Shown piece by piece: positions 12,318 to 54,544 of a DNA stretch of 64,000 nucleotides (position 1 is the stretch's first letter; every line of letters starts with the position of its first letter). The notes below the pieces were generated by a model, which worked only from the letters and a program-made list of their open reading frames with translations, had not been told where the DNA came from and did not search any database. The translations under genes were made by a program, and so were the position numbers. Source of the stretch: Escherichia phage phi92. The stretch lies in sequence record NC_023693.1; one strand, given 5' to 3'.

Positions 12318-13130
12318 TTATTTAGTCAAATGATCTTCTATCATTTTTATGAAAGCAGGATTGCTAAAAGCATCTGCGGCCTTTTCTCGATAAACAAAGA
12401 CTCCTCTATCTTCGTAAAGAAGAGTTTCTTCGTAATTAATTCCTGGGTTAACAACAATCATTTTTGTACCCATATTAAGTGCAGGGAATAATTCCCAATT
12501 AAAATTGATAACTTGGTTTGAACATCCTACTACAACAACCAAATCTTGCATGGTCAAAGTATCAAACAAGTGAGCCATATCTGCATACAAAGGTGCAGCC
12601 TCACCAAAAAATACAACATTAGGCTTCACCCAGTTGTAATCATCTATGTTTATACTGTTGTAACCAATATCTACCAGTGTTTTGTAATCCCCAGGATGCA
12701 TACGGTAAACTACTTCAGGAAGATATCCGTGCACGTGGATAACAGAATCCCTGTCTACACCTGCTCGCTCTAGTAGATCATCAACGTTTGTTGTCAAGTT
12801 TACTACTTGGTTAGGATATTCCTTAAACCACTTTGCTATTTGAATATGTGCAGCATTAGGTTGTACATCTTTAAGCTCAACACGTCTTTTGTTATAAAAT
12901 TCGTGTGTTTTGGCATACAAATCCATACCGTTTTCATCTACACCACCAACCACTGGAAGATCTGGTGATGTTCTCACACGATAACCTGCTTGGAAAGCTC
13001 CAATATCGCAGATCTCTTCTAAATCCCATTCTTCCCATAGGGCACGACCACTATCTGTGTCTGTTCGGAATGTTCGAATCCCACTATCTGCACTTAAACC
13101 AGCTCCACTAACAAAAATTACTCTTCGCAT
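12318..13130 (-). CDS. Sir2-family (sirtuin-like) NAD-dependent protein
   Basis: GAGLSADSGIRTFR NAD-binding motif, NAAH...TTNVDDL...HVHG catalytic-His block, VVFFGE, VVVGCS, VVNPG; no CxxC zinc ribbon seen; GAGGA SD. Confidence 0.75.
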   Translation of the reverse strand: MRRVIFVSGAGLSADSGIRTFRTDTDSGRALWEEWDLEEICDIGAFQAGYRVRTSPDLPVVGGVDENGMDLYAKTHEFYNKRRVELKDVQPNAAHIQIAKWFKEYPNQVVNLTTNVDDLLERAGVDRDSVIHVHGYLPEVVYRMHPGDYKTLVDIGYNSINIDDYNWVKPNVVFFGEAAPLYADMAHLFDTLTMQDLVVVVGCSNQVINFNWELFPALNMGTKMIVVNPGINYEETLLYEDRGVFVYREKAADAFSNPAFIKMIEDHLTK

Positions 13131-21587: not shown

Positions 21588-21627
21588 ATCTCCTCCTAAT
21601 AACCCCCTTGCGGGGGTTTATACTAGA

Positions 21628-22281
21628 TTAATTATCAGAGGACACTTTATCAAGTTTTTCAGAGACTGTCAATACTTTTTCTTGTGATTCTTTCATTTCT
21701 GCTAAAATACTTTCAGCTTCATCACTATCAGGATCACCAGTCAACAGCATACTAATTAGTTGCTCCTTGCTGAAGTTCAGAATATCTTCCGCTGTTAACT
21801 CCAGTTGTTCTTCGATCTCTTCGATAAAAGTTTCACCGCCTGAAAAAGCATCTCGCAGTTTTGCAACTTCCATCGCTTCTTCTGGGGTTGCCCCAGCGTC
21901 TAAAGCTGCTAAAGCAAAATCTGCCCCACTACCAACAGCATAATAATCTTCAGTTAAAGGATATGCTCGCGTTGGATTGTTACCCTCGTGCATATAAATT
22001 TTACCATCTGGGTGAACAACTAATGCCACAAACTCTTCATCTTCTTTATCAGGATTTGACTGGATCACCAAACCTGGGATTGTCTCTTGTGCTGCTTGGC
22101 ATTGTAAGTTTTGTTCGAACCAAGAAAAGAAAGTCAGGATAGAAGACAGACGTCCTGCACCACCAACAAGGTAATCCCCAATTTTACGCACTTTCTTGAA
22201 ATTTAAAGTGTCTACTCGATTACCTACTGTTACTTTACCGTCAGACAGAATTTTGTTACGTGTTGCAATAATTGTTGTCAT
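21628..22281 (-). CDS. HslV/proteasome-like Ntn-hydrolase peptidase
   Basis: N-terminal MTTIIATRN (Thr nucleophile after Met), KKVRKIGDYLVGGAG and YAVGSGADFALAA align to HslV blocks. Confidence 0.55.
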   Translation of the reverse strand: MTTIIATRNKILSDGKVTVGNRVDTLNFKKVRKIGDYLVGGAGRLSSILTFFSWFEQNLQCQAAQETIPGLVIQSNPDKEDEEFVALVVHPDGKIYMHEGNNPTRAYPLTEDYYAVGSGADFALAALDAGATPEEAMEVAKLRDAFSGGETFIEEIEEQLELTAEDILNFSKEQLISMLLTGDPDSDEAESILAEMKESQEKVLTVSEKLDKVSSDN

Positions 22282-22772
22282 TGTACTTCCTCCTGTAGTG
22301 TTTTAAGGACTGCTTTACCACCGCTTACATATTTACGGAGGTAATCAATAGCTCTTAGTGTTTCTTTATCCACAAGAATTTTATTAGTTCTTGTTAGTGG
22401 ATGATTTAGTAAATCACTGCAATTTCTTACTAACATAGATTTCTTGTGAAAGATACTGCTAAGAAAAAGAAGTTTAGAATCTTCTTCATCAATCAGGAGT
22501 AATTCTGAATTAGACCCAGCTATATTTATTATACACTCAAACAAGCCTTCTTGACTATCAGATAATTCCTGGTAATATTTAGTTAGCCAATCCTCTCCTT
22601 TTAACCAACTAAAAAACATCTGAACTTTTTGCAAAGTTGTCATGTTCTCTAAACGAAGAGATATTTCTTTTTCAATCTTGTCAATATAAATCTGTCTAAA
22701 CTCATTCGGCTTAACTAAGCCAGCTTGATAGCATTCATCAATACCATTGCGATCAATCTCAATTAGCGTCAT
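22278..22772 (-). CDS. hypothetical protein
   Basis: 164 aa. Confidence 0.5.
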   Translation of the reverse strand: MTLIEIDRNGIDECYQAGLVKPNEFRQIYIDKIEKEISLRLENMTTLQKVQMFFSWLKGEDWLTKYYQELSDSQEGLFECIINIAGSNSELLLIDEEDSKLLFLSSIFHKKSMLVRNCSDLLNHPLTRTNKILVDKETLRAIDYLRKYVSGGKAVLKTLQEEVQ

Positions 22773-22808
22773 TTAACCTCCATAATAGGCATCCTTGCCT
22801 TGTAATTA

Positions 22809-23561
22809 TTAATATACTTCCGTGATGAACTGAGACAAACGGGAACGTTGGTTATCAGCAGTTGTCATTTCAACATAACCAATAAAATCTACAATAGCTT
22901 CCCTTTCTCCTTCTTCGTTAATAGGAACAACACGATCTAACAAATCACCTAACCCGTTAGCTCTTCGTTTAATTGCATATGTTTGATTAACATCGCCCAT
23001 AATGACAATACGTGTATTAAGACCTGCTCGCTCAAGGAGAAGTTTTACTGTGTTTGGTGACATAAGTTGAACTTCATCAATAAGAATAATGCTGTTATCC
23101 CACGTAGCACCTAGTGCATAGTTTGGAATATTAAGTTCAATTTTGCCACTTGCAATATCGTTTTCCAATTTATTTGCAGTCATAAACTGTTGGAAAATTC
23201 TTTTAGTTGATTCGTAGTGTGCTGCTAGTTTATCAGTCTTATCTCCAGATAAGAAACCAATTTGATCATCACCTACTTCTGTCGGGTTTTTAAGGAAAAT
23301 CAACTTTCTGAAATCACCAGCTTTAAGCATTTGCAATGCTTTCCACAGTGCTGTTGTCGTTTTTCCTGTTCCTGCTGGGGCATTAACAATGGTTAAATCA
23401 TTCCAAACCATGCTTCTTACAATAGCTTCTTGATTCCCAACAGGGGTAAATTCATCAAGACGGTAATCATCATTTCCTACTGCTTTAGCCGCATAACGAC
23501 TGGCACGTTTGTCATCATTGGCTGCTGATTGACGACGAGCCTTTGCGGTTTTATTTCCCAT
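22809..23561 (-). CDS. phoH: PhoH-like ATPase
   Basis: Walker A VNAPAGTGKTT and PhoH-like overall layout. Confidence 0.8.
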   Translation of the reverse strand: MGNKTAKARRQSAANDDKRASRYAAKAVGNDDYRLDEFTPVGNQEAIVRSMVWNDLTIVNAPAGTGKTTTALWKALQMLKAGDFRKLIFLKNPTEVGDDQIGFLSGDKTDKLAAHYESTKRIFQQFMTANKLENDIASGKIELNIPNYALGATWDNSIILIDEVQLMSPNTVKLLLERAGLNTRIVIMGDVNQTYAIKRRANGLGDLLDRVVPINEEGEREAIVDFIGYVEMTTADNQRSRLSQFITEVY

Positions 23562-23569
23562 GTTTGCAC

Positions 23570-23598
23570 TCCTTATAAAAGGGGCTTTCGCCCCTTTG
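23570..23598 (-). terminator. rho-independent terminator
   Basis: AAAGGGGCGAAAGCCCCTTT hairpin then TTTTATAAGG on minus strand. Confidence 0.5.
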
Positions 23599-23599
23599 T

Positions 23600-24100
23600 T
23601 TAGTTATAAGCGTCTAATGTTCCAGTTTTAAGCACCTGAATTACACGCTCTGCGCGATTAGGCGTTTGGCGATACCATTTACTTTTACGTAAATTTATAG
23701 AGGCTTGAGTATAATATGAATTACTCACTAAAGTCAAGCTATTTTTGAAAGATTCTGCACCTTTCAATCCCATTTGAAATACCATATTAATAATAGCCAT
23801 TTTACGATTAGGACTTACTTTATCGTAAATAGGAGATAATATGGTACTTGAATGGATTTGTTGTATCGCTTTCTTTACGTCACTTTCAAAGATTCTTCTA
23901 GCTTCCGCTTCAGTAATAACTCCATTGGTTTTTCTACCTACTAAGTTATCAAGAATGCGTATAGCTTCTGCTTTATCTTTGAGTTTTGTCAGAAGGTGTC
24001 CAATACCAACTGTCCAATACCCTTCGGTATCAGGATATACAGTTAGCTTTAGTCCTTCATCAAAACGTAACATATCAAACACATCAACTACTTTAGCCAT
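23600..24100 (-). CDS. endolysin, T4-type lysozyme (GH24)
   Basis: FDMLRFDEGLKLTVYPDTEGYWTVGIGHLL matches T4 lysozyme N-terminus including catalytic Glu/Asp/Thr spacing. Confidence 0.85.
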   Translation of the reverse strand: MAKVVDVFDMLRFDEGLKLTVYPDTEGYWTVGIGHLLTKLKDKAEAIRILDNLVGRKTNGVITEAEARRIFESDVKKAIQQIHSSTILSPIYDKVSPNRKMAIINMVFQMGLKGAESFKNSLTLVSNSYYTQASINLRKSKWYRQTPNRAERVIQVLKTGTLDAYN

Positions 24101-24260: not shown

Positions 24261-24527
24261 TTACTCCGCAATCTGAGCCATGAATTCACGTAGTTCAGAA
24301 AAACCTCCTACGTGGGTTAGCTGTTCACCATCTTCCACAAAAATCTGAGGAAATGTGCGTGGTAGAACACCTGTTTTCTCTAAAACCAGATTCTGAATCT
24401 GATCTAAAGAATAGTCTTCATCTAAGGTAAGGTATTTAAAATCCTGTTCACGCTGTTCTAGTAGAATCTTAGCGTTAGTGCAGAAAGGACAATTTGGTTT
24501 ACCGTAGATAATAAAATTCATTTTCAC
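24261..24527 (-). CDS. glutaredoxin (NrdH/Grx-like)
   Basis: CPFC active site near N-terminus, 88 aa. Confidence 0.75.
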   Translation of the reverse strand: MKMNFIIYGKPNCPFCTNAKILLEQREQDFKYLTLDEDYSLDQIQNLVLEKTGVLPRTFPQIFVEDGEQLTHVGGFSELREFMAQIAE

Positions 24528-25354
24528 TCCTTGTTTAAAAGTATAGTTAAAGTTCTTACAATACCGCTATCAACACTTCGCGGATTTAAAGTAGGATCTG
24601 TTTTTAAATAAGATGTTGCTGGTCTGACTGCTTTGGAATTATAGGTTGAAGCAGATACAGGATTAACTGTAACAGACAAATCTATAACAAGAAATATCTT
24701 TCGTGCAAAATCATACCAAGAAATATAATCTGCACCTGCATAGTGTACAATTTTACTATTTACACCATCTTTTACAAGTTTAAAAATTGTTTCTGCAAGA
24801 TCAGGTGCATAAGTAGGACATGATAAATGATCACATACTACATTAAATTCTTTTTGACCACCGTTGTAGCGTTCCAACATAGTTTTCAAAAAGTTATGTC
24901 CAAATTCACTATAAACAGAAGCTGTTCTGATAATAAGTGCTGTAGGACAAACTGCTTGTACTAAAGTTTCACCTAATTGTTTACTGTAACCGTAGGTGTT
25001 CAAGGGGTTTGTTTTACTCTCTTCTGTGCCAGCAACATGTCCATCAAAAACATAGTCTGTTGAAATATGTACAAACTGTATCAGTAAATCATTACATGCT
25101 TTGGCAATGTTTGTTGCACCGTATGCATTAACATTTATACAGGTGTTAACATCTTCTTCAGCTTTATCTACTGCCGTGTAAGCCGCACAATTCACAACAA
25201 CATCAGGCACATGCTGTACAAGACTATTCATAACATCTTTAAAGTTGGTAATGTCTATATCACTTGCTTCAATCAAAACAACATCTTCTGGTGCAACTTT
25301 TGCCAAAGATTGTCCTAATTGACCTTTTGAACCAAAGACTAAAAATTTTGTCAA
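24524..25354 (-). CDS. rmlD: dTDP-4-dehydrorhamnose reductase
   Basis: N-terminal Rossmann FGSKGQLGQ and RmlD-like length; last gene of rml operon order. Confidence 0.75.
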   Translation of the reverse strand: MTKFLVFGSKGQLGQSLAKVAPEDVVLIEASDIDITNFKDVMNSLVQHVPDVVVNCAAYTAVDKAEEDVNTCINVNAYGATNIAKACNDLLIQFVHISTDYVFDGHVAGTEESKTNPLNTYGYSKQLGETLVQAVCPTALIIRTASVYSEFGHNFLKTMLERYNGGQKEFNVVCDHLSCPTYAPDLAETIFKLVKDGVNSKIVHYAGADYISWYDFARKIFLVIDLSVTVNPVSASTYNSKAVRPATSYLKTDPTLNPRSVDSGIVRTLTILLNKE

Positions 25355-25905
25355 AATATGATCTCCTTTAGTGTTTTGGCTTCCTGATCTTTTTGTGACA
25401 AGATAGGTTTAAAATTAATATCATTAAAGATTAAATCAAAACCCCAATCTATATTGATATCTGGATCATTCCACGCAAGACTACACTCTGAAGTCGGATC
25501 GTAATATTCTGTACATTTGTATTCAAAATCAGCAATATCACTAATCACAACAAAGCCATGAGCGAAACCAGGAGGAATCCAAAATTGTGTTTTATTCTTT
25601 TCAGATAAGAGAACACCTACCCATTCTCCAAATGTTGGACTACCAACCCTAATATCTACAGCAACATCATAAACTTCACCACGAACACAGCGTACCAACT
25701 TCCCTTGTGGGTTTTTCTTTTGAAAATGAAGCCCACGTAGAACTCCTCGGATAGAACGTGAATGGTTATCTTGGACAAAGTTTTGTTTACCTATGTATTG
25801 ATCATATAAAGCCTGATTAAAACTTTCTAAGAAAAAGCCACGTTCATCTCCGTAAACGTCAGGTTGAATGATCAACAAATCTTCGATTTTTGTTGCTTGA
25901 ATCAT
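25351..25905 (-). CDS. rmlC: dTDP-4-dehydrorhamnose 3,5-epimerase
   Basis: RGLHFQ cupin signature, 184 aa. Confidence 0.8.
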   Translation of the reverse strand: MIQATKIEDLLIIQPDVYGDERGFFLESFNQALYDQYIGKQNFVQDNHSRSIRGVLRGLHFQKKNPQGKLVRCVRGEVYDVAVDIRVGSPTFGEWVGVLLSEKNKTQFWIPPGFAHGFVVISDIADFEYKCTEYYDPTSECSLAWNDPDINIDWGFDLIFNDINFKPILSQKDQEAKTLKEIIF

Positions 25906-25917
25906 TTAATTCCCCTT

Positions 25918-26787
25918 TTATTTTAATTTAAGTAAATACTTACCGTAGTCTGTTTTACTTAAAACCTCTCCAGAACTTTTTACAGAGTCTAAAGTAATCC
26001 ATTCATTTTTAAAAGCAATCTCTTCCAGGCATGCAACCTTCATACCTTGTTGCTTCTCTATTGCATGAACAAATTGAGATGCTTCCATAAGACTTTCATG
26101 TGTTCCTGTATCCAGCCAAGTGAAACCTCTTCCTAGTTTACAGACACGTAAAGTCTTTTCTTTCCAGTACATCTCATTTATATCCGTAATCTCTAACTCC
26201 CCTCTAGCAGAAGGTTTAACGCTCTTAGCTTTCTGTATAACAGAATTATCGTAAAAGTACAAGCCTGTGATTGCGTAGTTGCTTTTTGGTGTTTTTGGTT
26301 TTTCTTCAATACTCACCACTGTACCTTCAGAATCAAACTCAACAACACCAAATCTTTCAGGATCATTTACGTGATACCCAAAGATATTAGCTCCACCATT
26401 CTTTTCAATATGTTCTTTAGCAGAATCTAAAATGCTACCAAAACTCTGACCAAAGAATAAATTATCACCTAGCACAAGTGCTACAGAATCTTCACCAATA
26501 AAGTTCTCACCAATAATAAACGCTTCTGCTAAACCTTTTGGGCTATCCTGTATTGCATACTGTAGGGAAATACCAAAAGAAGAACCATCACCTAGAAGAT
26601 TTACAAAATTAATTTGATCTTCTGGTGTTGTAATTATTAGTATTTCCCTAATTCCAGAAAGCATTAGGACAGAGAGTGGATAATAAATCATAGGTTTATC
26701 GTAAATTGGTAATAGTTGTTTACTAACCCCTTTAGTAACTGGGTAAAGCCTTGTTCCACTACCACCTGCTAAGATAATACCTTTCAT
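25918..26787 (-). CDS. rmlA: glucose-1-phosphate thymidylyltransferase
   Basis: [18 protein letters not shown] nucleotidyltransferase signature, 289 aa. Confidence 0.85.
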
Positions 26788-26795
26788 ACTCCTCC

Positions 26796-27785
26796 TTAAA
26801 CTTTATTTTCCCACCACTCTTTGTTATCTACATACCAATCAATGGTTGAATAAAGTTTTTCTTCAAATGTGCCTTTAGCTTTCCACCCTAATTCCTTTTC
26901 AATCTTATAAGGATTCACTTCATATCTTAAATCATGCCCAGGCCTATCTGTAACCATCTCAATGAGGCTACAAGCATCTGTTTCAGATGGATATACCGCA
27001 TCCATATAATCACAAATCATATAGATTACATCAATATTAGTTCTAGGGTTTCTGCTCCCAATATTATATGTCTCTCCAGATTTGCCTTTAGTTACTACTA
27101 GGTGTAATGCCTCTGCGTGATCGTCAACGTATAACCAGTCTCTTACTTGAAGACCATTACCATAAACAGGGATTGGTTTATGCATTAAGATATTTGTTAT
27201 CGTTTTAGGTATTAGTTTTTCTGGATGATGATATGCTCCAAAATTATTTGAACAATTTGTTATAACTGTCGGAATACCATAAGTACGATGCCACGCTCTT
27301 ACCAAATGATCGCTTGCAGCTTTAGATGCAGCATATGGACTACTTGGTTTATAAGGATTCTGTTCTGTAAACGGATAATCTCCTTCTTCCAGATCACCAT
27401 ACACTTCATCTGTTGAAATATGATGGAACATTTTAAGATTTGATTTATCTCCCATTAAACGAACAGCTTCTAGAAGATTAAATGTCCCAACAATATTTGA
27501 ATTTATAAAAACACTCGGTGATGCTATTGAATTATCTACGTGACTCTCTGCTGCAAGATGCATTATATAATCTGGATTAACATCTGCCACAATCTTAGCA
27601 GTTAACTGCGCATTTGTCAAGTCAACACGACAAAACTTTACATTAGGTGTTTCTGATAAATTCCTAGGGTCTGAAGCGTAACCCCATTTATCTATAACGT
27701 AAATATCATTCTTAGTATTTTTAGCTAGGAAACGAACTACCGCACTTCCAATAAAGCCTAAACCACCTGTTACTAAGTATTTCAT
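26796..27785 (-). CDS. rmlB: dTDP-glucose 4,6-dehydratase
   Basis: [12 protein letters not shown]-binding motif, SDR-type YxxxK region, 329 aa. Confidence 0.85.
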
Positions 27786-47769: not shown

Positions 47770-47900
47770 TATTTCCTCCTGTACGGCTCTGTAACGAGCT
47801 AATAGCCTCTAAGATATGCAATCACCTTACCTCACAGTAAAACTCGTTACAATCGTTTTTAGGAGGTTTAGGTTGTACTTAAAAATAATCTAAAAAGGTG

Positions 47901-47929
47901 TTGACAAACGCAAAAAAGTATGCTACCCT
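47901..47929 (+). promoter_or_regulatory. sigma70-like promoter (TTGACA-N17-TACCCT)
   Basis: TTGACA 47901-47906; weak -10. Confidence 0.3.
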
Positions 47930-48110
47930 AACCCCCGAAAAACGCCGAGCGCAGCGAGGGGGTGTTATCTAATCTTGTGATACATGATCTAACAGACAAC
48001 TGAGTAGTCTACATATAGCACTATGTTATGTCTATAATACTAACATACATACTCTATACTAACAATAGATTCTTTATTAATTTTATTATTAATTAAATAA
48101 TAAATATCTA

Positions 48111-48139
48111 TTGACTTTAGATCTATCTGTATGTAGAGT
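48111..48139 (+). promoter_or_regulatory. sigma70-like promoter (TTGACT-N17-TAGAGT)
   Basis: in AT-rich divergent region, about 40 nt upstream of the 48179 start. Confidence 0.45.
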
Positions 48140-48178
48140 AGAGAACATAAAGTCCTAACTCAACTAAGGAGATAAACA

Positions 48179-49072
48179 ATGAAAGTTAGTATTCTACATG
48201 GTGTTGGCTGTTATGTTACTGATGTAGACGTTAAAGTCTTTACATTCTCTGGTGGAGAACAACATGTTCAACTAGACACGAATCTATCAGGTTTCAATCA
48301 TGCTACAGACAGAATCTTACTCTCTTTAGAAGTAAGATCTGCTAAAGACTTGATGACTTTGGTTATGACTAAGAATGCATTGGACAATATGCTATATCAT
48401 AAACCATATTGTGTTGATTTGCTCATGTTGTATGTGCCATATGCACGACAAGACAGAGTGTGTGAACCTGGGGAAGCATTCGGAGTTAAAGCATTTGCTT
48501 CTATAATTAATTCATTAAATTTCTCACGTGTTATCGTTGCTGATCCACATAGTGATGTTACTCCAGCGGTGTTTGACAGACTCTGTGTAATACCTCAAGA
48601 AGAAATTGCTTACGAAACTTTAAAGTGGAAGTTACGTATGGAGAATTTTGCTCTTGTTAGTCCTGATGGTGGTGCTCTTAAGAAAATATTTAAATTATCT
48701 AAGAAAATGTCTTTAGATGTGTTCTGTGCAGAGAAGGTTAGAGATACTGCAACAGGTGCTATTGTTCGTACAGACATTTCTGTACAGGATTTCAATAAGC
48801 GTAACCTGATGATCGTAGATGATATCTGTGACGGCGGTAGAACTTTTATTGAATTGGCTAAAGTGCTACGTGCTCGTAACGCAGGTAAGATTGAGTTATA
48901 TGTTACACACGGTATCTTTTCTAAAGGTCTTAAAGAGTTAAGTGAGCACTTTGACTGCATTCATTCTCTTAATGTGTGGGAAGATAACATCCAAGAAGAT
49001 TCCGGTGTTCTTGTTAAGAATCAGTCAGATTTGCAACAACAAATTGTATCTCCATACGTGTGGAATTTTTAA
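48179..49072 (+). CDS. ribose-phosphate pyrophosphokinase (PRPP synthetase) family protein; candidate ADP-ribose pyrophosphate synthetase (Adps-like)
   Basis: VSPDGGALKK and PRPP-binding-type IVDDICDGGRT motifs; AAGGAG SD. Confidence 0.8.
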   Translation: MKVSILHGVGCYVTDVDVKVFTFSGGEQHVQLDTNLSGFNHATDRILLSLEVRSAKDLMTLVMTKNALDNMLYHKPYCVDLLMLYVPYARQDRVCEPGEAFGVKAFASIINSLNFSRVIVADPHSDVTPAVFDRLCVIPQEEIAYETLKWKLRMENFALVSPDGGALKKIFKLSKKMSLDVFCAEKVRDTATGAIVRTDISVQDFNKRNLMIVDDICDGGRTFIELAKVLRARNAGKIELYVTHGIFSKGLKELSEHFDCIHSLNVWEDNIQEDSGVLVKNQSDLQQQIVSPYVWNF

Positions 49073-49081
49073 ATAATAAGT

Positions 49082-49110
49082 GTTGACAATAGGGAGTATG
49101 CTTAGTAAGA
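49082..49110 (+). promoter_or_regulatory. sigma70-like promoter (TTGACA-N17-TAAGAT)
   Basis: between the PRPP-synthetase-like and NAMPT-like genes. Confidence 0.45.
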
Positions 49111-49143
49111 TACTCCCACACTAACAAACAAGGAGACATAACT

Positions 49144-50877
49144 ATGAATATTTTTGCACCTTTTGCTACTGATTGGTATAAACCTGGTCACAAGCAGATG
49201 TACAACCAAAATACAAAACTCATTTTCTCTAATTTAACTCCTCGTAATGATAAAAACTTTGCACACTATGCAGATCGTGAAGCACGTGGTGTGATTGTTT
49301 TAGGTATTCGTCGAGCAGTCACTGATGCTCTTGTAACTATGTGGGATAGCTTCTTTAAAATGTCTCGTAGTGCAGCAGTAAATAAATTTTATCGTATGTC
49401 TAAAAATGCATTAGGTGCTTCTGCTCCTTCTGCTGAATGTTGGGAAGAATTGCACGATTTAGGTTATCTTCCGCTAGAAGTTCGATCTCTGCCAGAAGGT
49501 GTTTTGTGTCCTATTGGTGTTCCTGTGTTTACTGTGCATAATACTTTAGAAAAATTCTTTTGGTTAACTAACTATGTGGAAACACTATTGTCAGATGAAA
49601 CTTGGAAGACAATGACTAATGCCACAGCAGCTTTTCAGTATAAGCGTATCGCTATGGCGTATGCGATGGCAACGTGTGATAACATTGATCACGTTAATTT
49701 CCAGTGTCATGACTTTAGCCTACGTGGTTTAAGCAATATCGAAGATGGTTATAAGAGTGGTATCGCTCATTTGGCATCTTTCACAGGAACAGATAACATT
49801 CTGGCTATTGAGACTGTGCATGATTATTATGGTATTGATTATGATCAGTTTGTTGCAGGTTCTATTCCGGCAACAGAACATTCAGTAGCAACGACTAACA
49901 TTGGAGCTATTGTTGAAGATCTGAAGAAACATTTCCCACATCTTAAAGATGATGTTGATGGGCTTCGTTATGTAGCAGAGAAAGAGTTTCTTCGCCGCTA
50001 TATTGAAGAAATTGTTCCAGAAGGTTTTTGTTCATATGTAGCAGATTCTTATGATTACTGGGCTGTCTTGACTCGCATTCTGGTAGAATTGAAAGAGTCC
50101 ATTATGTCACGAAATGGTCGTCTTGTTATTCGTCCAGATTCAGGAGATCCGGTTAAAGTTGTTGCAGGATACAATGTTGAATCTTTTGCTAACTATGAAG
50201 ACCTTTTAAATAATGGTATTGCTACAGCCACTGAAGTAGTTCATTTGGCTGATGTTAATAAGTATTACAATGTTCTTCAGGATTGCAGTGTTGCTGATTG
50301 TATTGATGAAACTTATGAGATTCCTTATTGTGAAGCAGTAGGTTCTATTCAAATCCTTTGGGAAGTGTTTGGTGGTACTATCAACCGAAAAGGCTACAAG
50401 GTTCTTGATCAGCACATCGGTATGATTTATGGTGATTCTATTACTGTTGAACGAGAATACGAGATCTTACGCCGACTGAAGAAGAAAGGTTTTGCAGCTT
50501 CCAATATTGTATTTGGTGTTGGTAGTTATACTTATCAGTTCAATACACGAGATACTTTTGGTTTTGCTGTTAAAGCAACAGGTAGTATCATCGGTGAACA
50601 CGAAATTTTGGTAAGTAAGGAGCCTAAAACTGATCCTGGTAAACGCTCTGCAAAAGGTTTTATTAAGGTTGTTAAGGATACAAATGGTAAACTTTCTCTT
50701 GTGGATAATCTTTCTTTTAAAGATATCCAAGATGAAGACAATGAGTTAAAAGTTATCTTCAGGGATGGTACGGTTATTACACCACAAGTAGAAGGACGTG
50801 ATGAAACATTTACTGATATCCGCAACCGTGTTGATGTAGAGGTTCTTCGTACTATGGGAACCATCCAGGTTGACTAA
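49144..50877 (+). CDS. nicotinamide phosphoribosyltransferase (NAMPT) family protein; candidate nicotinamide ADP-ribose transferase (Namat-like)
   Basis: N-terminal TDWYKPGH (DSYKxxH-like), RPDSGD, FGVGSYTYQFNTRDTFGFAVKAT blocks of NAMPT family; AAGGAGA SD. Confidence 0.8.
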   Translation: MNIFAPFATDWYKPGHKQMYNQNTKLIFSNLTPRNDKNFAHYADREARGVIVLGIRRAVTDALVTMWDSFFKMSRSAAVNKFYRMSKNALGASAPSAECWEELHDLGYLPLEVRSLPEGVLCPIGVPVFTVHNTLEKFFWLTNYVETLLSDETWKTMTNATAAFQYKRIAMAYAMATCDNIDHVNFQCHDFSLRGLSNIEDGYKSGIAHLASFTGTDNILAIETVHDYYGIDYDQFVAGSIPATEHSVATTNIGAIVEDLKKHFPHLKDDVDGLRYVAEKEFLRRYIEEIVPEGFCSYVADSYDYWAVLTRILVELKESIMSRNGRLVIRPDSGDPVKVVAGYNVESFANYEDLLNNGIATATEVVHLADVNKYYNVLQDCSVADCIDETYEIPYCEAVGSIQILWEVFGGTINRKGYKVLDQHIGMIYGDSITVEREYEILRRLKKKGFAASNIVFGVGSYTYQFNTRDTFGFAVKATGSIIGEHEILVSKEPKTDPGKRSAKGFIKVVKDTNGKLSLVDNLSFKDIQDEDNELKVIFRDGTVITPQVEGRDETFTDIRNRVDVEVLRTMGTIQVD

Positions 50878-51624: not shown

Positions 51625-51700
51625 GGTTCCATAGCTCACTGACGAGAGCGCACACCTCATAAGTGTCGAGGGCAGGGATTGTAACCCTGGGGAACCACCA
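51625..51700 (+). tRNA. tRNA-Met/Ile2-like (anticodon CAT), non-canonical T-loop
   Basis: manual fold: acceptor GGTTCC/GGAACC, D-stem GCTC/GAGC, anticodon loop CTCATAA, T-stem CAGGG/CCCTG with loop ATTGTAA, CCA encoded. Confidence 0.5.
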
Positions 51701-51731
51701 TTTAAAAGGAGGTGCTATGCATCTCCTATAT

Positions 51732-51817
51732 GCAAGTGTGGTGGAATTGGTGATACACATTGTGCTTAAAACGCAACGCTTAAATGCTTGAGGGTTCGAA
51801 TCCCTCCACTTGCACCA
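51732..51817 (+). tRNA. tRNA-Leu (anticodon TAA)
   Basis: manual fold: acceptor GCAAGTG/CACTTGC, anticodon stem TTGTG/CGCAA, loop CTTAAAA, long variable arm, T-arm GAGGG-TTCGAAT-CCCTC, CCA. Confidence 0.7.
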
Positions 51818-51833
51818 ACACCTAAAAAATATC

Positions 51834-51862
51834 TTGACATTTACTTAGTTTTTTGTTATAGT
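51834..51862 (+). promoter_or_regulatory. sigma70-like promoter (TTGACA-N17-TATAGT)
   Basis: immediately upstream of tRNA-like element at 51874. Confidence 0.45.
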
Positions 51863-51873
51863 TACTATGAAAA

Positions 51874-51955
51874 CGGGGTGTATCTCACCTGACTTCTAAT
51901 CAGGCGTTAACCGAGTAATTGGAGTATGCAGGTTCGAATCCTGTCACCCCGGCCA
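51874..51955 (+). tRNA. tRNA-like element, identity unresolved (candidate anticodon loop CTTCTAA)
   Basis: acceptor CGGGGTG/CACCCCG, T-arm GCAGG-TTCGAAT-CCTGT, CCA; perfect hairpin CCTGA-CTTCTAA-TCAGG but no D-arm found by eye. Confidence 0.4.
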
Positions 51956-51973
51956 AAAAGTTTTAAAAACTAC

Positions 51974-52002
51974 TTGACAAGCAAGATAGTTTTATGTTAG
52001 AT
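51974..52002 (+). promoter_or_regulatory. sigma70-like promoter (TTGACA-N17-TTAGAT)
   Basis: upstream of tRNA-Ser at 52019. Confidence 0.4.
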
Positions 52003-52018
52003 TTAAAGTATGATAACT

Positions 52019-52108
52019 GGAAGGTAGGGCGCAGCGGTGCGCAACCAGGTTTGAACCCTGGCCCATTGTAGCGATACGGTGATGGTTCGACTCCATTATC
52101 TTCCTCCA
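52019..52108 (+). tRNA. tRNA-Ser (anticodon TGA)
   Basis: manual fold: acceptor GGAAGGT/ATCTTCC, anticodon stem CCAGG/CCTGG loop TTTGAAC, long variable arm, T-loop TTCGACT, CCA. Confidence 0.65.
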
Positions 52109-52114
52109 AATTCA

Positions 52115-52279
52115 ATGAGTGATTTTATGAATTATAAAACTATTGGACAGGTTGTTACCGGAGTTAAGATTGTAAATAATAAAGTTGTTTATGAGTATTC
52201 TAATCTTCAACAATCTGAAGATGGTAAGAATATTCGTATGGTAAAAACAGAACAAAAAGATTCCGGTTGTTTTGAATAA
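52115..52279 (+). CDS. small hypothetical protein inside tRNA cluster
   Basis: ORF between tRNAs; start uncertain (ATG 52115 or 52127); weak SD. Confidence 0.3.
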   Translation: MSDFMNYKTIGQVVTGVKIVNNKVVYEYSNLQQSEDGKNIRMVKTEQKDSGCFE

Positions 52280-52287
52280 TTAAAAAC

Positions 52288-52373
52288 GGTAGATTGGTGA
52301 AATGGTAGCCACAACAGTTTGCTAAACTGTCGTCGGAAACGGCGTGTAGGTTCAAGTCCTACATCTACCGCCA
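52288..52373 (+). tRNA. tRNA-Ser (anticodon GCT)
   Basis: manual fold: acceptor GGTAGAT/ATCTACC, anticodon stem ACAGT/ACTGT loop TTGCTAA, long variable arm, T-arm GTAGG-TTCAAGT-CCTAC, CCA. Confidence 0.7.
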
Positions 52374-52507
52374 AGTTATCTTTAATGTAGCTTGTAATCT
52401 TACTTTAGCAGAGTAAACTTTCGGCAGATGGTGGCAGCCATTTTACCGATACCCCAATACTTCATAGCTAAGTGCCGCAAACACTGGCTATTTTAAAGAT
52501 AATTTAT

Positions 52508-52583
52508 ACATCGTTAGCTTAGTTGGTAGAGCAAGGGTCTTTTAACTCCAAGGTCGAAGGTTCGAATCCTTCACGATGTACCA
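52508..52583 (+). tRNA. tRNA-Lys-like (anticodon TTT), weak anticodon stem
   Basis: perfect acceptor ACATCGT/ACGATGT, D-arm GCTTAGTTGGTAGAGC, loop CTTTTAA, T-arm GAAGG-TTCGAAT-CCTTC, CCA; anticodon stem only about 3 bp. Confidence 0.55.
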
Positions 52584-52588
52584 AACAT

Positions 52589-52675
52589 GTAGGTATCGCA
52601 TAGCGGCAATTGCTGGAGACTGTAAATCTCTTGCCCTTCGGGGCTTCGTTGGTTCGAGTCCAACTACCTGCACCA
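52589..52675 (+). tRNA. tRNA-Tyr (anticodon GTA)
   Basis: manual fold: acceptor GTAGGTA/TACCTGC, anticodon stem GGAGA/TCTCT loop CTGTAAA, long variable arm, T-loop TTCGAGT, CCA. Confidence 0.65.
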
Positions 52676-52682
52676 AATTAAA

Positions 52683-52767
52683 GATGGATTGGCCTAGTGG
52701 TTGGGCGACGGACTGTTAATCCGTGAACGAAAGTTCTAGCAAGGTTCAAATCCTTGATCCATCGCCA
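52683..52767 (+). tRNA. tRNA with Asn anticodon (GTT) on a class-II (long variable arm) body
   Basis: manual fold: acceptor GATGGAT/ATCCATC, 3 bp D-stem, anticodon stem ACGGA/TCCGT loop CTGTTAA, variable arm hairpin GAAC-GAAA-GTTC, T-arm CAAGG-TTCAAAT-CCTTG, discriminator G, CCA. Confidence 0.55.
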
Positions 52768-52772
52768 TATAG

Positions 52773-52840
52773 TGCTTGTAGAGTTAATAGAAACCTCTAG
52801 AATTTTCTAGAATTGTAGGTATCAAATCCTACCAAGCAAA
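52773..52840 (+). tRNA. degenerate tRNA-like remnant (possible pseudo-tRNA)
   Basis: T-arm-like GTAGG-TATCAAAT-CCTAC with 8 nt loop, no CCA, overlapping TCTAGA inverted repeats instead of a clean anticodon arm. Confidence 0.2.
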
Positions 52841-52846
52841 TATTTT

Positions 52847-52921
52847 GCTCCTATCGTATAACGGCTATTACGGTTGCCTTGTAAGCAACTTATCAGGGTT
52901 CGAGTCCTTGTGGGAGCACCA
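52847..52921 (+). tRNA. tRNA-Thr (anticodon TGT)
   Basis: manual fold: acceptor GCTCCTA/TGGGAGC, anticodon stem GTTGC/GCAAC loop CTTGTAA, T-loop TTCGAGT, CCA. Confidence 0.7.
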
Positions 52922-52943
52922 ATTTAACTCTAAAGGAGTGTAT

Positions 52944-53267
52944 GTGACAGAAAAAGAGTTAGAGAAATATTTTAATATCAATGTTTTCGATGGTTTTGAT
53001 GATATTGAAGATGTTGAAAGATATTATGAAGTAGAGTTAGATAAGGATAACATTGTAATTCTTTCTGCCACTTATGATTGTGCATATTATGAAGGTGAAT
53101 CTCACGTTTATTTCTATGATATGAAAACATCTTTGTTTTATGAAGTACACGCATATCATTGTTCTTGTTATGGCTTAGAAGGTCAGTGGGAACCTGAAGA
53201 AATAGGTGATTTGGACTTTACTATTGCATATCTAAACAGACGTGGTGCATCTACTATTTTAAAATAA
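52944..53267 (+). CDS. hypothetical protein inside tRNA cluster
   Basis: GTG start after AAAGGAG SD; in frame with track ORF 52845-53267, whose 5' part overlaps tRNA-Thr. Confidence 0.45.
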   Translation: MTEKELEKYFNINVFDGFDDIEDVERYYEVELDKDNIVILSATYDCAYYEGESHVYFYDMKTSLFYEVHAYHCSCYGLEGQWEPEEIGDLDFTIAYLNRRGASTILK

Positions 53268-53281
53268 ATATTAAAAGCCTC

Positions 53282-53311
53282 TTGACAAAGGGGCTAATAA
53301 TATGTTAGAGT
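53282..53311 (+). promoter_or_regulatory. sigma70-like promoter (TTGACA-N18-TAGAGT)
   Basis: upstream of tRNA-Gly. Confidence 0.45.
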
Positions 53312-53322
53312 AATATTGTTAA

Positions 53323-53397
53323 GCGGGTATAGTGTTAATGGTAGCATATGAGGTTTCCACCCTCCAGGTGCAGGTTCAAGTCCTGTTACTCGCTCCA
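53323..53397 (+). tRNA. tRNA-Gly (anticodon TCC)
   Basis: manual fold: acceptor GCGGGTA/TACTCGC, anticodon loop TTTCCAC, T-arm GCAGG-TTCAAGT-CCTGT, CCA. Confidence 0.6.
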
Positions 53398-53828
53398 AGA
53401 TTATTTAAATGGAATCGCTAGAGAAAATTTCTCTTTTCGCTCATGGTTTTCTCCTTCAAACTCTAGCGGTTCTTTTTAAGTGATTTTTTAGTTTATTGGA
53501 GATTCACTGCCTTAGTGTGAGCTAAAATCGAGGAGCCATCGAACTGTCTGATTAATGATTTGCGAATCATTATAGTTTTAAGACCCCGGCAGTTTTATGG
53601 TGTACCTCTTGAATGTGAATGATGACGGGTTTATGGTTATCCTGGTCGTTAAATATCCAAAAACCTATGTTCCCCTTGAGGGCTTGCGCAGGCAATGCCA
53701 ATAAGTCCTGCATTTTCATTTAAAAGAGAATTTATAATGGAAAAAGATGAACTTAAGTATGCTAAGCCTCTGGCTTCTGCTGCACGAAAAGCAGTTCGTC
53801 ACTTTGTGGTAACACTGAAGTAATTTAT

Positions 53829-53903
53829 TGGAGATTGGCCTAGTGGGAAGGCAACGGCCTTTGAAGTCGTGATGACTAGGTTCGATTCCTAGATCTCCAG
53901 CCA
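53829..53903 (+). tRNA. tRNA-Gln (anticodon TTG)
   Basis: manual fold: acceptor TGGAGAT/ATCTCCA, anticodon stem ACGGC/GTCGT loop CTTTGAA, T-arm CTAGG-TTCGATT-CCTAG, CCA. Confidence 0.65.
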
Positions 53904-53910
53904 AGATTTA

Positions 53911-53986
53911 CAGTGCGTAGCGCAGTTGGTAGCGTGGGAGCCTTGGACGCTTCAGGTCGCAGGTTCGAGTCCTGCCGCACTGACCA
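53911..53986 (+). tRNA. tRNA-Pro (anticodon TGG)
   Basis: manual fold: acceptor CAGTGCG/CGCACTG, anticodon loop CTTGGAC, T-arm GCAGG-TTCGAGT-CCTGC, CCA. Confidence 0.65.
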
Positions 53987-53991
53987 AATTT

Positions 53992-54066
53992 GCAGAGATA
54001 GCTGAGACGGATTAGTGCTACCCTGAAAAGGTAGAAAGGATGGATCGTTACCATCTCTCTGCACCA
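53992..54066 (+). tRNA. tRNA-Phe (anticodon GAA), atypical T-loop
   Basis: manual fold: perfect acceptor GCAGAGA/TCTCTGC, anticodon stem CTACC/GGTAG loop CTGAAAA, T-arm GATGG-ATCGTTA-CCATC, CCA. Confidence 0.6.
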
Positions 54067-54143
54067 AATAACACCATCCAAGGAGAATACTTGGTTAACT
54101 GTCAATAGCACATTGAGGCTTCTTACAGTGGTGTACTTATTAT

Positions 54144-54228
54144 GGCTAAGTGGTGGAATGGTATACACGATACGCTTAGAACGTATTGCCCCAAGGGATT
54201 GTGAGTTCGAGTCTCACCTTAGCTACCA
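54144..54228 (+). tRNA. tRNA-Leu (anticodon TAG)
   Basis: manual fold: acceptor GGCTAAG/CTTAGCT, anticodon stem ATACG/CGTAT loop CTTAGAA, long variable arm, T-arm GTGAG-TTCGAGT-CTCAC, CCA. Confidence 0.7.
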
Positions 54229-54243
54229 AATTATTACAAGTTT

Positions 54244-54322
54244 CGCGGGATAGAGGAGTCTGGTCGTCCTCGCCAGTTTCATATGCTGGAGATCGTAGGT
54301 TCAAATCCTACTCCCGTTACCA
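54244..54322 (+). tRNA. tRNA-Met (anticodon CAT), initiator-like
   Basis: 5' CGCGGGA with unpaired position 1-72 (as in bacterial tRNA-fMet), anticodon stem CCAGT/GCTGG loop TTCATAT, T-arm GTAGG-TTCAAAT-CCTAC, CCA. Confidence 0.6.
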
Positions 54323-54387
54323 ACAAATACCTCCCTTCTGGTGTAATGATTAAATTACATTGACACTTCAAGGAACTCATAGCCGGG

Positions 54388-54463
54388 TAGATTTAAAAGA
54401 GTATGGTACTCAATATGGCTCCAAACCATAGATCAGGGGGTTCGATTCCTCACCTTGCTGCCA
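54388..54463 (+). tRNA. tRNA-Trp-like (anticodon CCA), acceptor stem not resolved
   Basis: perfect anticodon arm TATGG-CTCCAAA-CCATA, D-stem GAGT/ACTC, T-loop TTCGATT, 3' CCA; 5' acceptor strand does not pair well by eye. Confidence 0.4.
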
Positions 54464-54468
54464 ATTAT

Positions 54469-54544
54469 TGTGGTATCGTACAGATGGTTAGTACACTCGA
54501 CCGATAATCGAGAAACAACGGTTCGACTCCGTTTACCACGACCA
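54469..54544 (+). tRNA. tRNA-Ile (anticodon GAT)
   Basis: manual fold: acceptor TGTGGTA/TACCACG, anticodon stem CTCGA/TCGAG loop CCGATAA, T-arm AACGG-TTCGACT-CCGTT, CCA. Confidence 0.65.

Follow-up and report, generated by a model that had tools for sequence, protein, structure and literature searches.

The gene at positions 21628..22281, on the minus strand, of a 64,000-nucleotide stretch of the genome of Escherichia phage phi92 (NC_023693.1; the whole stretch is called the window here) probably encodes an active N-terminal nucleophile (Ntn) hydrolase of the proteasome-beta/HslV superfamily, namely, a long form of the phage PPH/RPC lineage that is an accessory protein and is unlikely to dock onto HslU in the canonical way. 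A sequence-only reading of the window had treated this gene as unnoticed; many GenBank records, however, already annotate it, and a survey of 2021 described the phage lineage (PMC8665760). The identification is therefore of low novelty, and the present work is a correct re-identification of an annotated gene, to which we make modest additions: a long-tailed subfamily with a post-core motif, a constant PhoH neighbourhood, a selection pattern, and a natural deletion in phage VEcB.

Identification of the gene and predicted fold of its product

The open reading frame (ORF) at exactly 21628..22281 proved to be real and well formed, and it lies on the minus strand, which the sequence-only reading had left unstated; the plus-strand translation of the same interval is full of stops. 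The ORF list, matches to PHROG 1040 and PF00227, and annotated Justusliebigvirus genes that are 99% identical all support a coding sequence of 217 amino acids (aa), the ortholog of Bas61_0205 ("putative proteasome component"). Its product starts with MTTIIATRNKILSDGK from an ATG codon and contains all of the blocks quoted earlier (MTTIIATRN, KKVRKIGDYLVGGAG, and YAVGSGADFALAA).

Sequence searches returned PHROG 1040 ("peptidase HslV family") with an E value of 3.3e-62, the Pfam Proteasome family PF00227 at 24.6 bits (cut-off, 22.4), and HslV chains of the PDB with E values of 2e-7 for the single sequence and 1.3e-14 for a 60-sequence family profile, and hhalign aligned the protein to E. coli HslV with a probability of 97.3%. 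The AlphaFold2 model (predicted local distance difference test score [pLDDT] of 86.6 overall and above 90 in the core) displayed an Ntn beta-sandwich (alpha-beta-beta-alpha, S1-S11 core) with helices H1 (residues 45-67), H3, and H4. Foldseek matched this model about equally well to 20S beta (E value, 2.7e-10), HslV (2.8-4.6e-10; target TM score, 0.64-0.67), and the beta-proteobacteria proteasome homologue BPH (4.9e-10), with a probability of 1.0. The scores from PHROG, Pfam, the HslV chains, hhalign, and Foldseek thus place the similarity far beyond chance, and they agree with the earlier proposal of an HslV/proteasome-like Ntn peptidase with a threonine after the initiator methionine.

Over 15 kb around the gene, the window shares 99% identity with VivaForever and EmilieFrey, two Escherichia phages of Justusliebigvirus (Stephanstirmvirinae) and members of a group of phi92-like myoviruses of ~147 kb. 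Dozens of records contain genes that code for a 98 to 99% identical protein and bear the annotation "peptidase HslV family", "putative proteasome component", or "putative 20S proteasome". Four GenBank records labeled "Campylobacter phage" (MG065639.1, MG065645.1, MG065656.1, and MG065689.1; 146 kb; host, C. jejuni) encode a 98.6% identical protein, and five Campylobacter records also match the 15-kb region; the C. jejuni host assignment of the four looks doubtful. Our search of the literature on transcriptomics and proteomics of phi92-like phages found nothing usable.

A complete predicted proteasome-type active site

The predicted catalytic core consists of residues 1-157 (21811..22281, minus strand), a beta-sandwich with H1, H3, and H4 that was delimited by the AlphaFold2 model, Foldseek, conservation, and the ratio of nonsynonymous to synonymous substitution rates (dN/dS). 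Two alignments, with 19 and 60 members of the family, were used to count conservation. All complete homologs start with M-T-T and lack a propeptide, and T2 was found in 59 of 59 aligned homologs. Its codon (22276..22278, minus strand, within atg aca aca) specifies the predicted N-terminal nucleophile, which would become Thr1 after removal of the methionine; E. coli HslV starts with MTTIV, and the first residue of its crystal chain 1e94_A is Thr. Aligned to their HslV equivalents, D14 (Asp17; codon 22240-22242) and K30 (Lys33; 22192-22194) were each present in 59/59 homologs, and G43 (Gly47; 22153-22155) was present in 59/60. The same count, 59/60, was obtained for the serine of G117-S118-G119 (Ser129; 21928-21930). 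The sequence-only reading had raised the loss of the Lys and Ser catalytic partners as a point to check, and both turned out to be retained. Toward the end of the core, the conserved motif R143-D144-x-x-S147-G148-G149 aligns to Asp166, Ser169, and Gly170 of the Thermoplasma 20S beta subunit (D144, 21850-21852; S147, 21841-21843; all of these codons on the minus strand). Alignments to beta5 run through this RDxxSGG motif, whereas those to HslV end before it. As judged from the alignments, the proteasome-type active site, comprising Thr1, Asp17, Lys33, Gly47, Ser129, Asp166, and Ser169, is complete. The dN/dS of the core, measured against the Phapecoctavirus ortholog, was 0.12, indicating purifying selection.

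The model departs from HslV and 20S beta at helix H2, in place of which it has a 16-residue coil (residues 68-83; 22033..22080, minus strand). DSSP assigned no helix between H1 (45-67) and the strand 84-89, either in the monomer or in a tandem model of two cores (see below), and residues 68-83 are the least conserved stretch of the core.

An acidic C-terminal tail marks the long forms of the family

The last strand of the core (residues 152-155) is followed by a tail of 60 aa (residues 158-217) with a net charge of -11. Near its start lies the post-core motif L-T-x-E...(F)SKEQLI..LL.G (residues 161-182; 21736..21801, minus strand), which AlphaFold2 predicts to form a helix-turn-helix with helices at 164-169 and 172-181 (pLDDT, 75-81). 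The distal tail, residues 183-217 plus the stop codon (21628..21735, minus strand), is variable, with a long helix predicted at low confidence for residues 188-211 (pLDDT, 57-73). Identity to the query across the family is 14% in the distal tail versus ~70% in the core, and dN/dS against the Phapecoctavirus ortholog was at least 1, at saturation, for residues 186-217. Tails are always acidic, with a net charge of -5 to -23 in full-length long forms. The tail of the phi92 protein had no match among PDB sequences, and its Pfam matches were insignificant.

An exhaustive search of 1.8 billion cluster representatives, with E values up to 1e-3, recovered 2065 relatives. About 55 are long forms (180-350 aa) that align to the query through residue ~190, and many further relatives of 135-155 aa align to residues 1-150 alone, with 30 to 46% identity to the query core, and end right after the RDxxSGG strand. 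The motif at 161-182 is kept in all long-form members, down to 30 to 36% identity, and is missing from the short ~140-aa forms. Since the short forms fit the published description of PPH, the query can be regarded as a PPH-type core plus a 60-aa tail, within a family whose lengths form a continuum from the long forms to proteins of ~140 aa. All long-form homologs found came from phage records or contigs of phage size, their named hosts being gammaproteobacteria (Escherichia, Klebsiella, Vibrio, Aeromonas, and Shewanella). BFVD holds 49 representatives of the fold, which is thus common in phages.

In one phage, two such genes are adjacent. In Aeromonas phage 4L372D (NC_048771.1), a divergent paralog of 183 aa, which starts with M-T-C, has VGCG where the GSG Ser129 motif would be, and has no tail, lies directly upstream of a 294-aa long form, both belonging to PHROG 1040 (L006:4432-4983 and L006:5001-5885, respectively). 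A hetero-oligomeric particle is a possibility in that lineage.

The protein is best filed with the PPH/RPC lineage

Phage-borne proteasome homologs were described by Fuchs, Alva and Lupas in 2021 as the lineage PPH/RPC, which lacks helix H2 and for which no function and no AAA+ partner were found (PMC8665760). The phi92 protein resembles this lineage in being a phage-borne group I homolog with no propeptide, a compact core without insertions or S12/H5, no H2, an intact Thr1/Asp17/Lys33/Gly47 set, and no known co-occurring AAA+ partner. PPH proteins were described as ~140 aa long, and RPC proteins were described as having a C-terminal extension and listed as proteobacterial, not phage (PMC8665760). 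By these descriptions, 217 aa exceeds the length of PPH and would suit a form "with C-terminal extension"; the phi92 protein and ~55 representative clusters differ from PPH by an additional 40-170 aa, a tail that starts with the conserved helix-turn-helix. We conclude that the phage protein is best filed with PPH/RPC and not with HslV.

HslV remains the best sequence match and shares with the phage protein the Ntn fold, a Thr1 bared by loss of the methionine (predicted for the phage protein), the lack of a propeptide, and nearly the same first five residues. However, identity is ~25%, the S1-S2 hairpin of the phage protein is 4 residues shorter, its acidic tail is extra, its C-terminal RDxxSGG motif is of the type found in 20S beta, and it has no hslU neighbour. 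The scores against the NCBIfam HslV equivalogs, 35.2 bits for NF003964 (cut-off, 137) and 32.9 bits for TIGR03692 (cut-off, 157.75), both fell short; the phage protein is thus not HslV proper. With 20S beta (PF00227), it shares the fold (the Foldseek match being to the S. acidocaldarius beta subunit), the Ser129 G-S-G, and the Asp166/Ser169 RDxxSGG, but it lacks a propeptide, an alpha partner, H2, and S12/H5, and its core is much smaller. No gene for an alpha-like subunit was found, the upstream ORF of 164 aa (ORF164) being unrelated. BPH (5ovs/5ovt) is likewise a stand-alone bacterial homolog with no known unfoldase, in which acidic elements have been proposed to regulate substrate access; the acidity of BPH resides in a long pore loop after H1/H2, with H2 kept, whereas that of the phage protein resides in the C-terminal tail.

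We also considered, and rejected, a prohead protease: the gene sits among nucleotide-metabolism genes, and the fold is Ntn and not that of a herpesvirus/HK97-type serine protease. A separate prohead protease, bas61_0005, is annotated between the portal and scaffold genes in the structural module. Neither the peptidase nor either of the flanking small ORFs matched the defence models of PADLOC-DB.

The canonical docking site for HslU is altered

HslU's C-terminal tail inserts into a pocket between HslV subunits that is formed by Phe54 and Phe57 of H1, Ala79 and Lys80 of H2, and Gln114 (PMC6429459). According to hhalign, Phe57 is kept in the phage protein as F52, while Phe54 is replaced by L49 and Gln114 by P108, and in the model there is no helix on which the H2 residues could sit. 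Lys28 of HslV aligns to a variable threonine in the phage family; this lysine is said, in work of Sousa and colleagues from 2000, to pair with the C-terminal carboxylate of HslU. Neither the window nor the 99%-identical curated genome MZ501063 has an annotated hslU, clpX, or similar gene, in line with the earlier statement that no HslU partner lies nearby. Since H2 is absent, the canonical HslU C-tail pocket is most likely unused, and the predicted structure argues against canonical HslU docking, a different binding mode aside. The cooperation with host HslU or a ClpY-like unfoldase that the sequence-only reading had put forward is not supported: the equivalog models were failed by ~100 bits, a coil replaces H2, and two pocket residues are changed.

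A natural deletion in phage VEcB removes the nucleophile

In Escherichia phage VEcB (MT932211.1), blastn breakpoints showed that an interval of ~1.12 kb, corresponding to ~22097..23217 of the window, is missing, and a 9-nucleotide (nt) microhomology, AGCAGCACA, is present on both flanks of the deletion. The deletion takes the C-terminal half of an upstream PhoH-like protein, the whole of ORF164, and residues 1-63 of the peptidase, including Thr1, Asp17, Lys33, and Gly47. In the resulting gene, vecB_055 (P0043), PhoH residues 1-113 are fused in frame to peptidase residues 64-217. OZ035773.1, a record of the same species as VEcB, harbors the full-length gene. The deletion indicates that the peptidase gene is dispensable for the propagation of at least one isolate, and dispensability in VEcB together with purifying selection on the core points to an accessory gene with a conditional benefit.

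The database entries P0062 and P0072 hold N-terminally truncated proteins: a 128-aa form with an unrelated N terminus and a 159-aa form annotated in phage vB_EcoM-Ro121c4YLVW. These may be further frameshift or loss variants or may reflect miscalled starts.

Start signals and the upstream ORF164

A Shine-Dalgarno sequence, AGGAGG (22289..22294, minus strand), can be read directly 7 nt 5' of the ATG, within the 3' end of the upstream ORF. That ORF, ORF164 (164 aa; 22278..22772, minus strand; PHROG 14834, function unknown), overlaps the peptidase start by 4 nt, its stop codon and the peptidase ATG sharing the sequence ATGA. This overlap suggests translational coupling, and the two proteins are likely cotranslated. 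ORF164 is conserved only within Stephanstirmvirinae (40% identity to Klebsiella KP13-16), and its slot is occupied in Vibrio-type lineages by an unrelated ORF of ~62 aa. Prompted by the 4L372D gene pair, we considered ORF164 as a cryptic alpha-like second subunit and rejected it, as its sequence resembles neither the two paralogs nor proteins of the Ntn fold.

A GC-rich hairpin, CCCCCGCAAGGGG (21604..21616, minus strand), lies 11 nt past the peptidase stop, just ahead of the Shine-Dalgarno sequence of the next gene, and a second one lies at 23578-23597, in the short intergenic gap after a lysin gene. Scans for terminator-like sites and promoters around the peptidase gene gave counts not above the shuffled expectation.

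A PhoH-like ATPase gene is a constant neighbour of the long forms

Genes for nucleotide metabolism and replication surround the peptidase gene in a long block on the minus strand. Among ATPases, the closest is a PhoH-like P-loop protein encoded 0.5 kb upstream (22809..23561, minus strand; Pfam PhoH E value, 1.4e-35). As transcribed, the order is cell-wall hydrolase, PhoH-like ATPase, 0 to 6 intervening ORFs, and long-form homolog, and this order is kept in Justusliebigvirus, Phapecoctavirus, Klebsiella KP13-16, Vibrio 1.187.O, Shewanella 1/40, and Aeromonas 4L372D as well as in two phage lineages from metagenomes (36% and 32% identity). PhoH was thus found upstream of the long form in 8/8 lineages examined. 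The short homologs in the unrelated phages CcrColossus and Erythrobacter L02 have no annotated PhoH neighbour.

The lysin slot upstream of PhoH (23600-24100 in the window; L010:2465-3067 and L009:2740-3447 in other lineages) holds nonhomologous families, namely, a T4-type lysozyme, GH108 with PG_binding_3, and PG_binding_1 with CHAP, in what looks like in-place lysin replacement. On the metagenomic contig SRR20381876 (L010:3084-4946), the PhoH gene immediately upstream of the long form encodes 620 aa and contains a Hint/LAGLIDADG intein.

Another ATPase, bas61_0105 (375 aa; MZ501063.1, L003:24904-26031), was considered as an unfoldase and rejected. It is encoded 38 kb away, outside the window, and has no peptidase domain. 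Its family occurs in 378 phage records, including many Gram-positive phages without the proteasome homolog, which speaks against a specific partner. In a weak alignment, the position of the Cdc48 pore-1 loop MWFG reads QAYS, which is not a canonical pore-1 loop. The protein belongs to the classical AAA clade, with PF00004 alone (PHROG 2376), and its homologs include many from Enterococcus, Bacillus, and Staphylococcus phages; its annotation as an "FtsH-like protease" is misleading.

Other genes of the window

Four consecutive minus-strand genes at 24524-27785, next to a glutaredoxin gene, resemble those of the dTDP-L-rhamnose pathway (thymidylyltransferase, 4,6-dehydratase, 3,5-epimerase, and reductase) and may serve to modify either DNA or surface sugars. 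A sirtuin-family gene lies at 12318-13130 on the minus strand, and genes for phosphoribosylpyrophosphate synthetase and nicotinamide phosphoribosyltransferase lie on the plus strand at ~47840-50540, a position estimated by offset from MZ501063; the three together constitute an NAD-related set. The plus strand also carries 15 tRNA genes at 51625-54544. One of them, at 52508-52583, was reported by ARAGORN as "tRNA-???" with a two-base anticodon (tt) and is annotated as tRNA-Lys in a near-identical genome.

Weighing of alternative readings

Several points weigh against the reading of the protein as a PPH/RPC-type peptidase that does not use HslU. Literature searches on phage members of the family returned annotation-level mentions alone and no biochemical or genetic work. 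The best sequence match of the family profile is still HslV, and gammaproteobacteria, as far as is known, encode HslUV. Self-association was modeled with a tandem AlphaFold2 construct (core 1-185, a 30-residue Gly/Ser linker, and core 1-185 again) and a paired alignment of 15 sequences. Each core took on the fold seen in the monomer, and the predicted TM score of the whole chain was 0.71, versus ~0.4-0.5 by our own estimate for independent halves, but this model was made without a control and its five versions vary (mean pLDDT, 56-75), so that the score is a weak hint of self-association. Finally, connectase, a monomeric, highly specific protein ligase of the same superfamily, shows that a fold with Thr1 can serve as a ligase and not a protease (PMC8665760). 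The phage protein might accordingly be a Thr1 Ntn enzyme without being a general protease, either a specific ligase or transpeptidase like connectase or an amidase with a defined peptide or small molecule as its substrate. We consider this unlikely. The loss of H2 and the added tail do alter the ring-capping surfaces, and Fuchs et al. warned that several of the new homologs may not form rings (PMC8665760), but the full proteasome-type set, including Ser129, Asp166, and Ser169, is conserved, the signature helical insertion of connectase between S3 and S4, which lies over the active site, is missing (a turn of 2 residues connects strands 17-19 and 22-25), and the tandem model hints at self-association. 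A substitute for or supplement to host HslV that uses host HslU (ClpY) as its docking partner and unfoldase and degrades host or defence proteins would suit the profile match to HslV, the near identity of MTTII to MTTIV, the conserved pocket phenylalanine F52, and the lack of a phage-encoded HslU in phages whose named hosts carry hslU. Its chances are nonetheless small in view of the 33-35 bits obtained against equivalog cut-offs of 137-158, the coil in place of the H2 that bears Ala79 and Lys80, the exchanges of Gln114 for Pro and Phe54 for Leu, the C-terminal active-site motif of the 20S beta type, and the lack of any AAA+ partner in the survey of these homologs (PMC8665760).

The constant neighbourhood raises the question of whether the PhoH-like ATPase is the cognate partner, a ring motor that stacks on the peptidase while the tail motif docks, giving a new phage ATP-dependent machine. 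PhoH is also common among phages without this peptidase, and six ORFs separate the two genes in Aeromonas 4L372D. The lineages with PhoH linkage all fall within a single broad clade of colinear myoviruses of ~115-155 kb, so that adjacency is perhaps inherited gene order. Speaking for the pairing, adjacency holds in all eight long-form lineages down to 32% identity, despite the lysin swaps and the PhoH intein, and both the tail and an annotated PhoH neighbour are missing from the short forms of unrelated phages. In VEcB, PhoH, ORF164, and the peptidase nucleophile were lost together, but a contiguous deletion is uninformative on interaction. PhoH domains have been reported as hexameric RNA-helicase rings that feed a fused PIN ring, which would provide a ring motor, yet the substrate reported there is RNA and not protein (PMC7390352). 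On balance, we regard a cognate PhoH partner as improbable, and the more specific version, in which a hexameric PhoH ring caps the long-form peptidase via the conserved tail motif to form a two-component phage ATP-dependent degradation machine, as a shade more so. That the protein is a catalytically irrelevant decoy which binds and poisons host HslV or HslU is hardly credible: inactive mimics of host proteins are often phage encoded, and the acidic tail could serve as a competitive element, but a pure binding decoy would not need catalytic residues kept in 59-60 of 60 homologs or a core dN/dS of 0.12, and the HslU-facing H2 is missing.

Proposed mode of action and significance

Under the preferred reading of an active PPH/RPC-type hydrolase, the peptidase would be produced along with the products of the replication and nucleotide-metabolism genes, its translation coupled to that of ORF164 and its gene lying downstream of that for the PhoH-like ATPase. 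Host methionine aminopeptidase would take off Met1, as for E. coli HslV (MTTIV), and thereby expose Thr1. The hydroxyl of Thr1 would then attack peptide bonds, with Lys33 and Asp17 as the putative proton relay and Gly47 as the putative oxyanion hole. The protein probably self-associates, which would confine activity to the assembled particle. It may act alone on unfolded proteins or peptides or with a partner other than HslU, and the best candidate for an element that binds a partner or a substrate is the predicted helix-turn-helix with which the acidic tail begins.

Phages with this gene infect E. coli K-12 (BASEL phage EmilieFrey, Bas61, and relatives). The intact active site, the deletion variant VEcB (MT932211), and the full-length record of the same species (OZ035773) together offer a convenient entry to the substrates and any partner. 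If the PhoH pairing were true, it would give a role to the widespread, functionally obscure phage phoH and would add a non-AAA+ motor to the proteasome activators. If host or defence proteins are degraded, the peptidase would represent a new kind of phage counter-measure.

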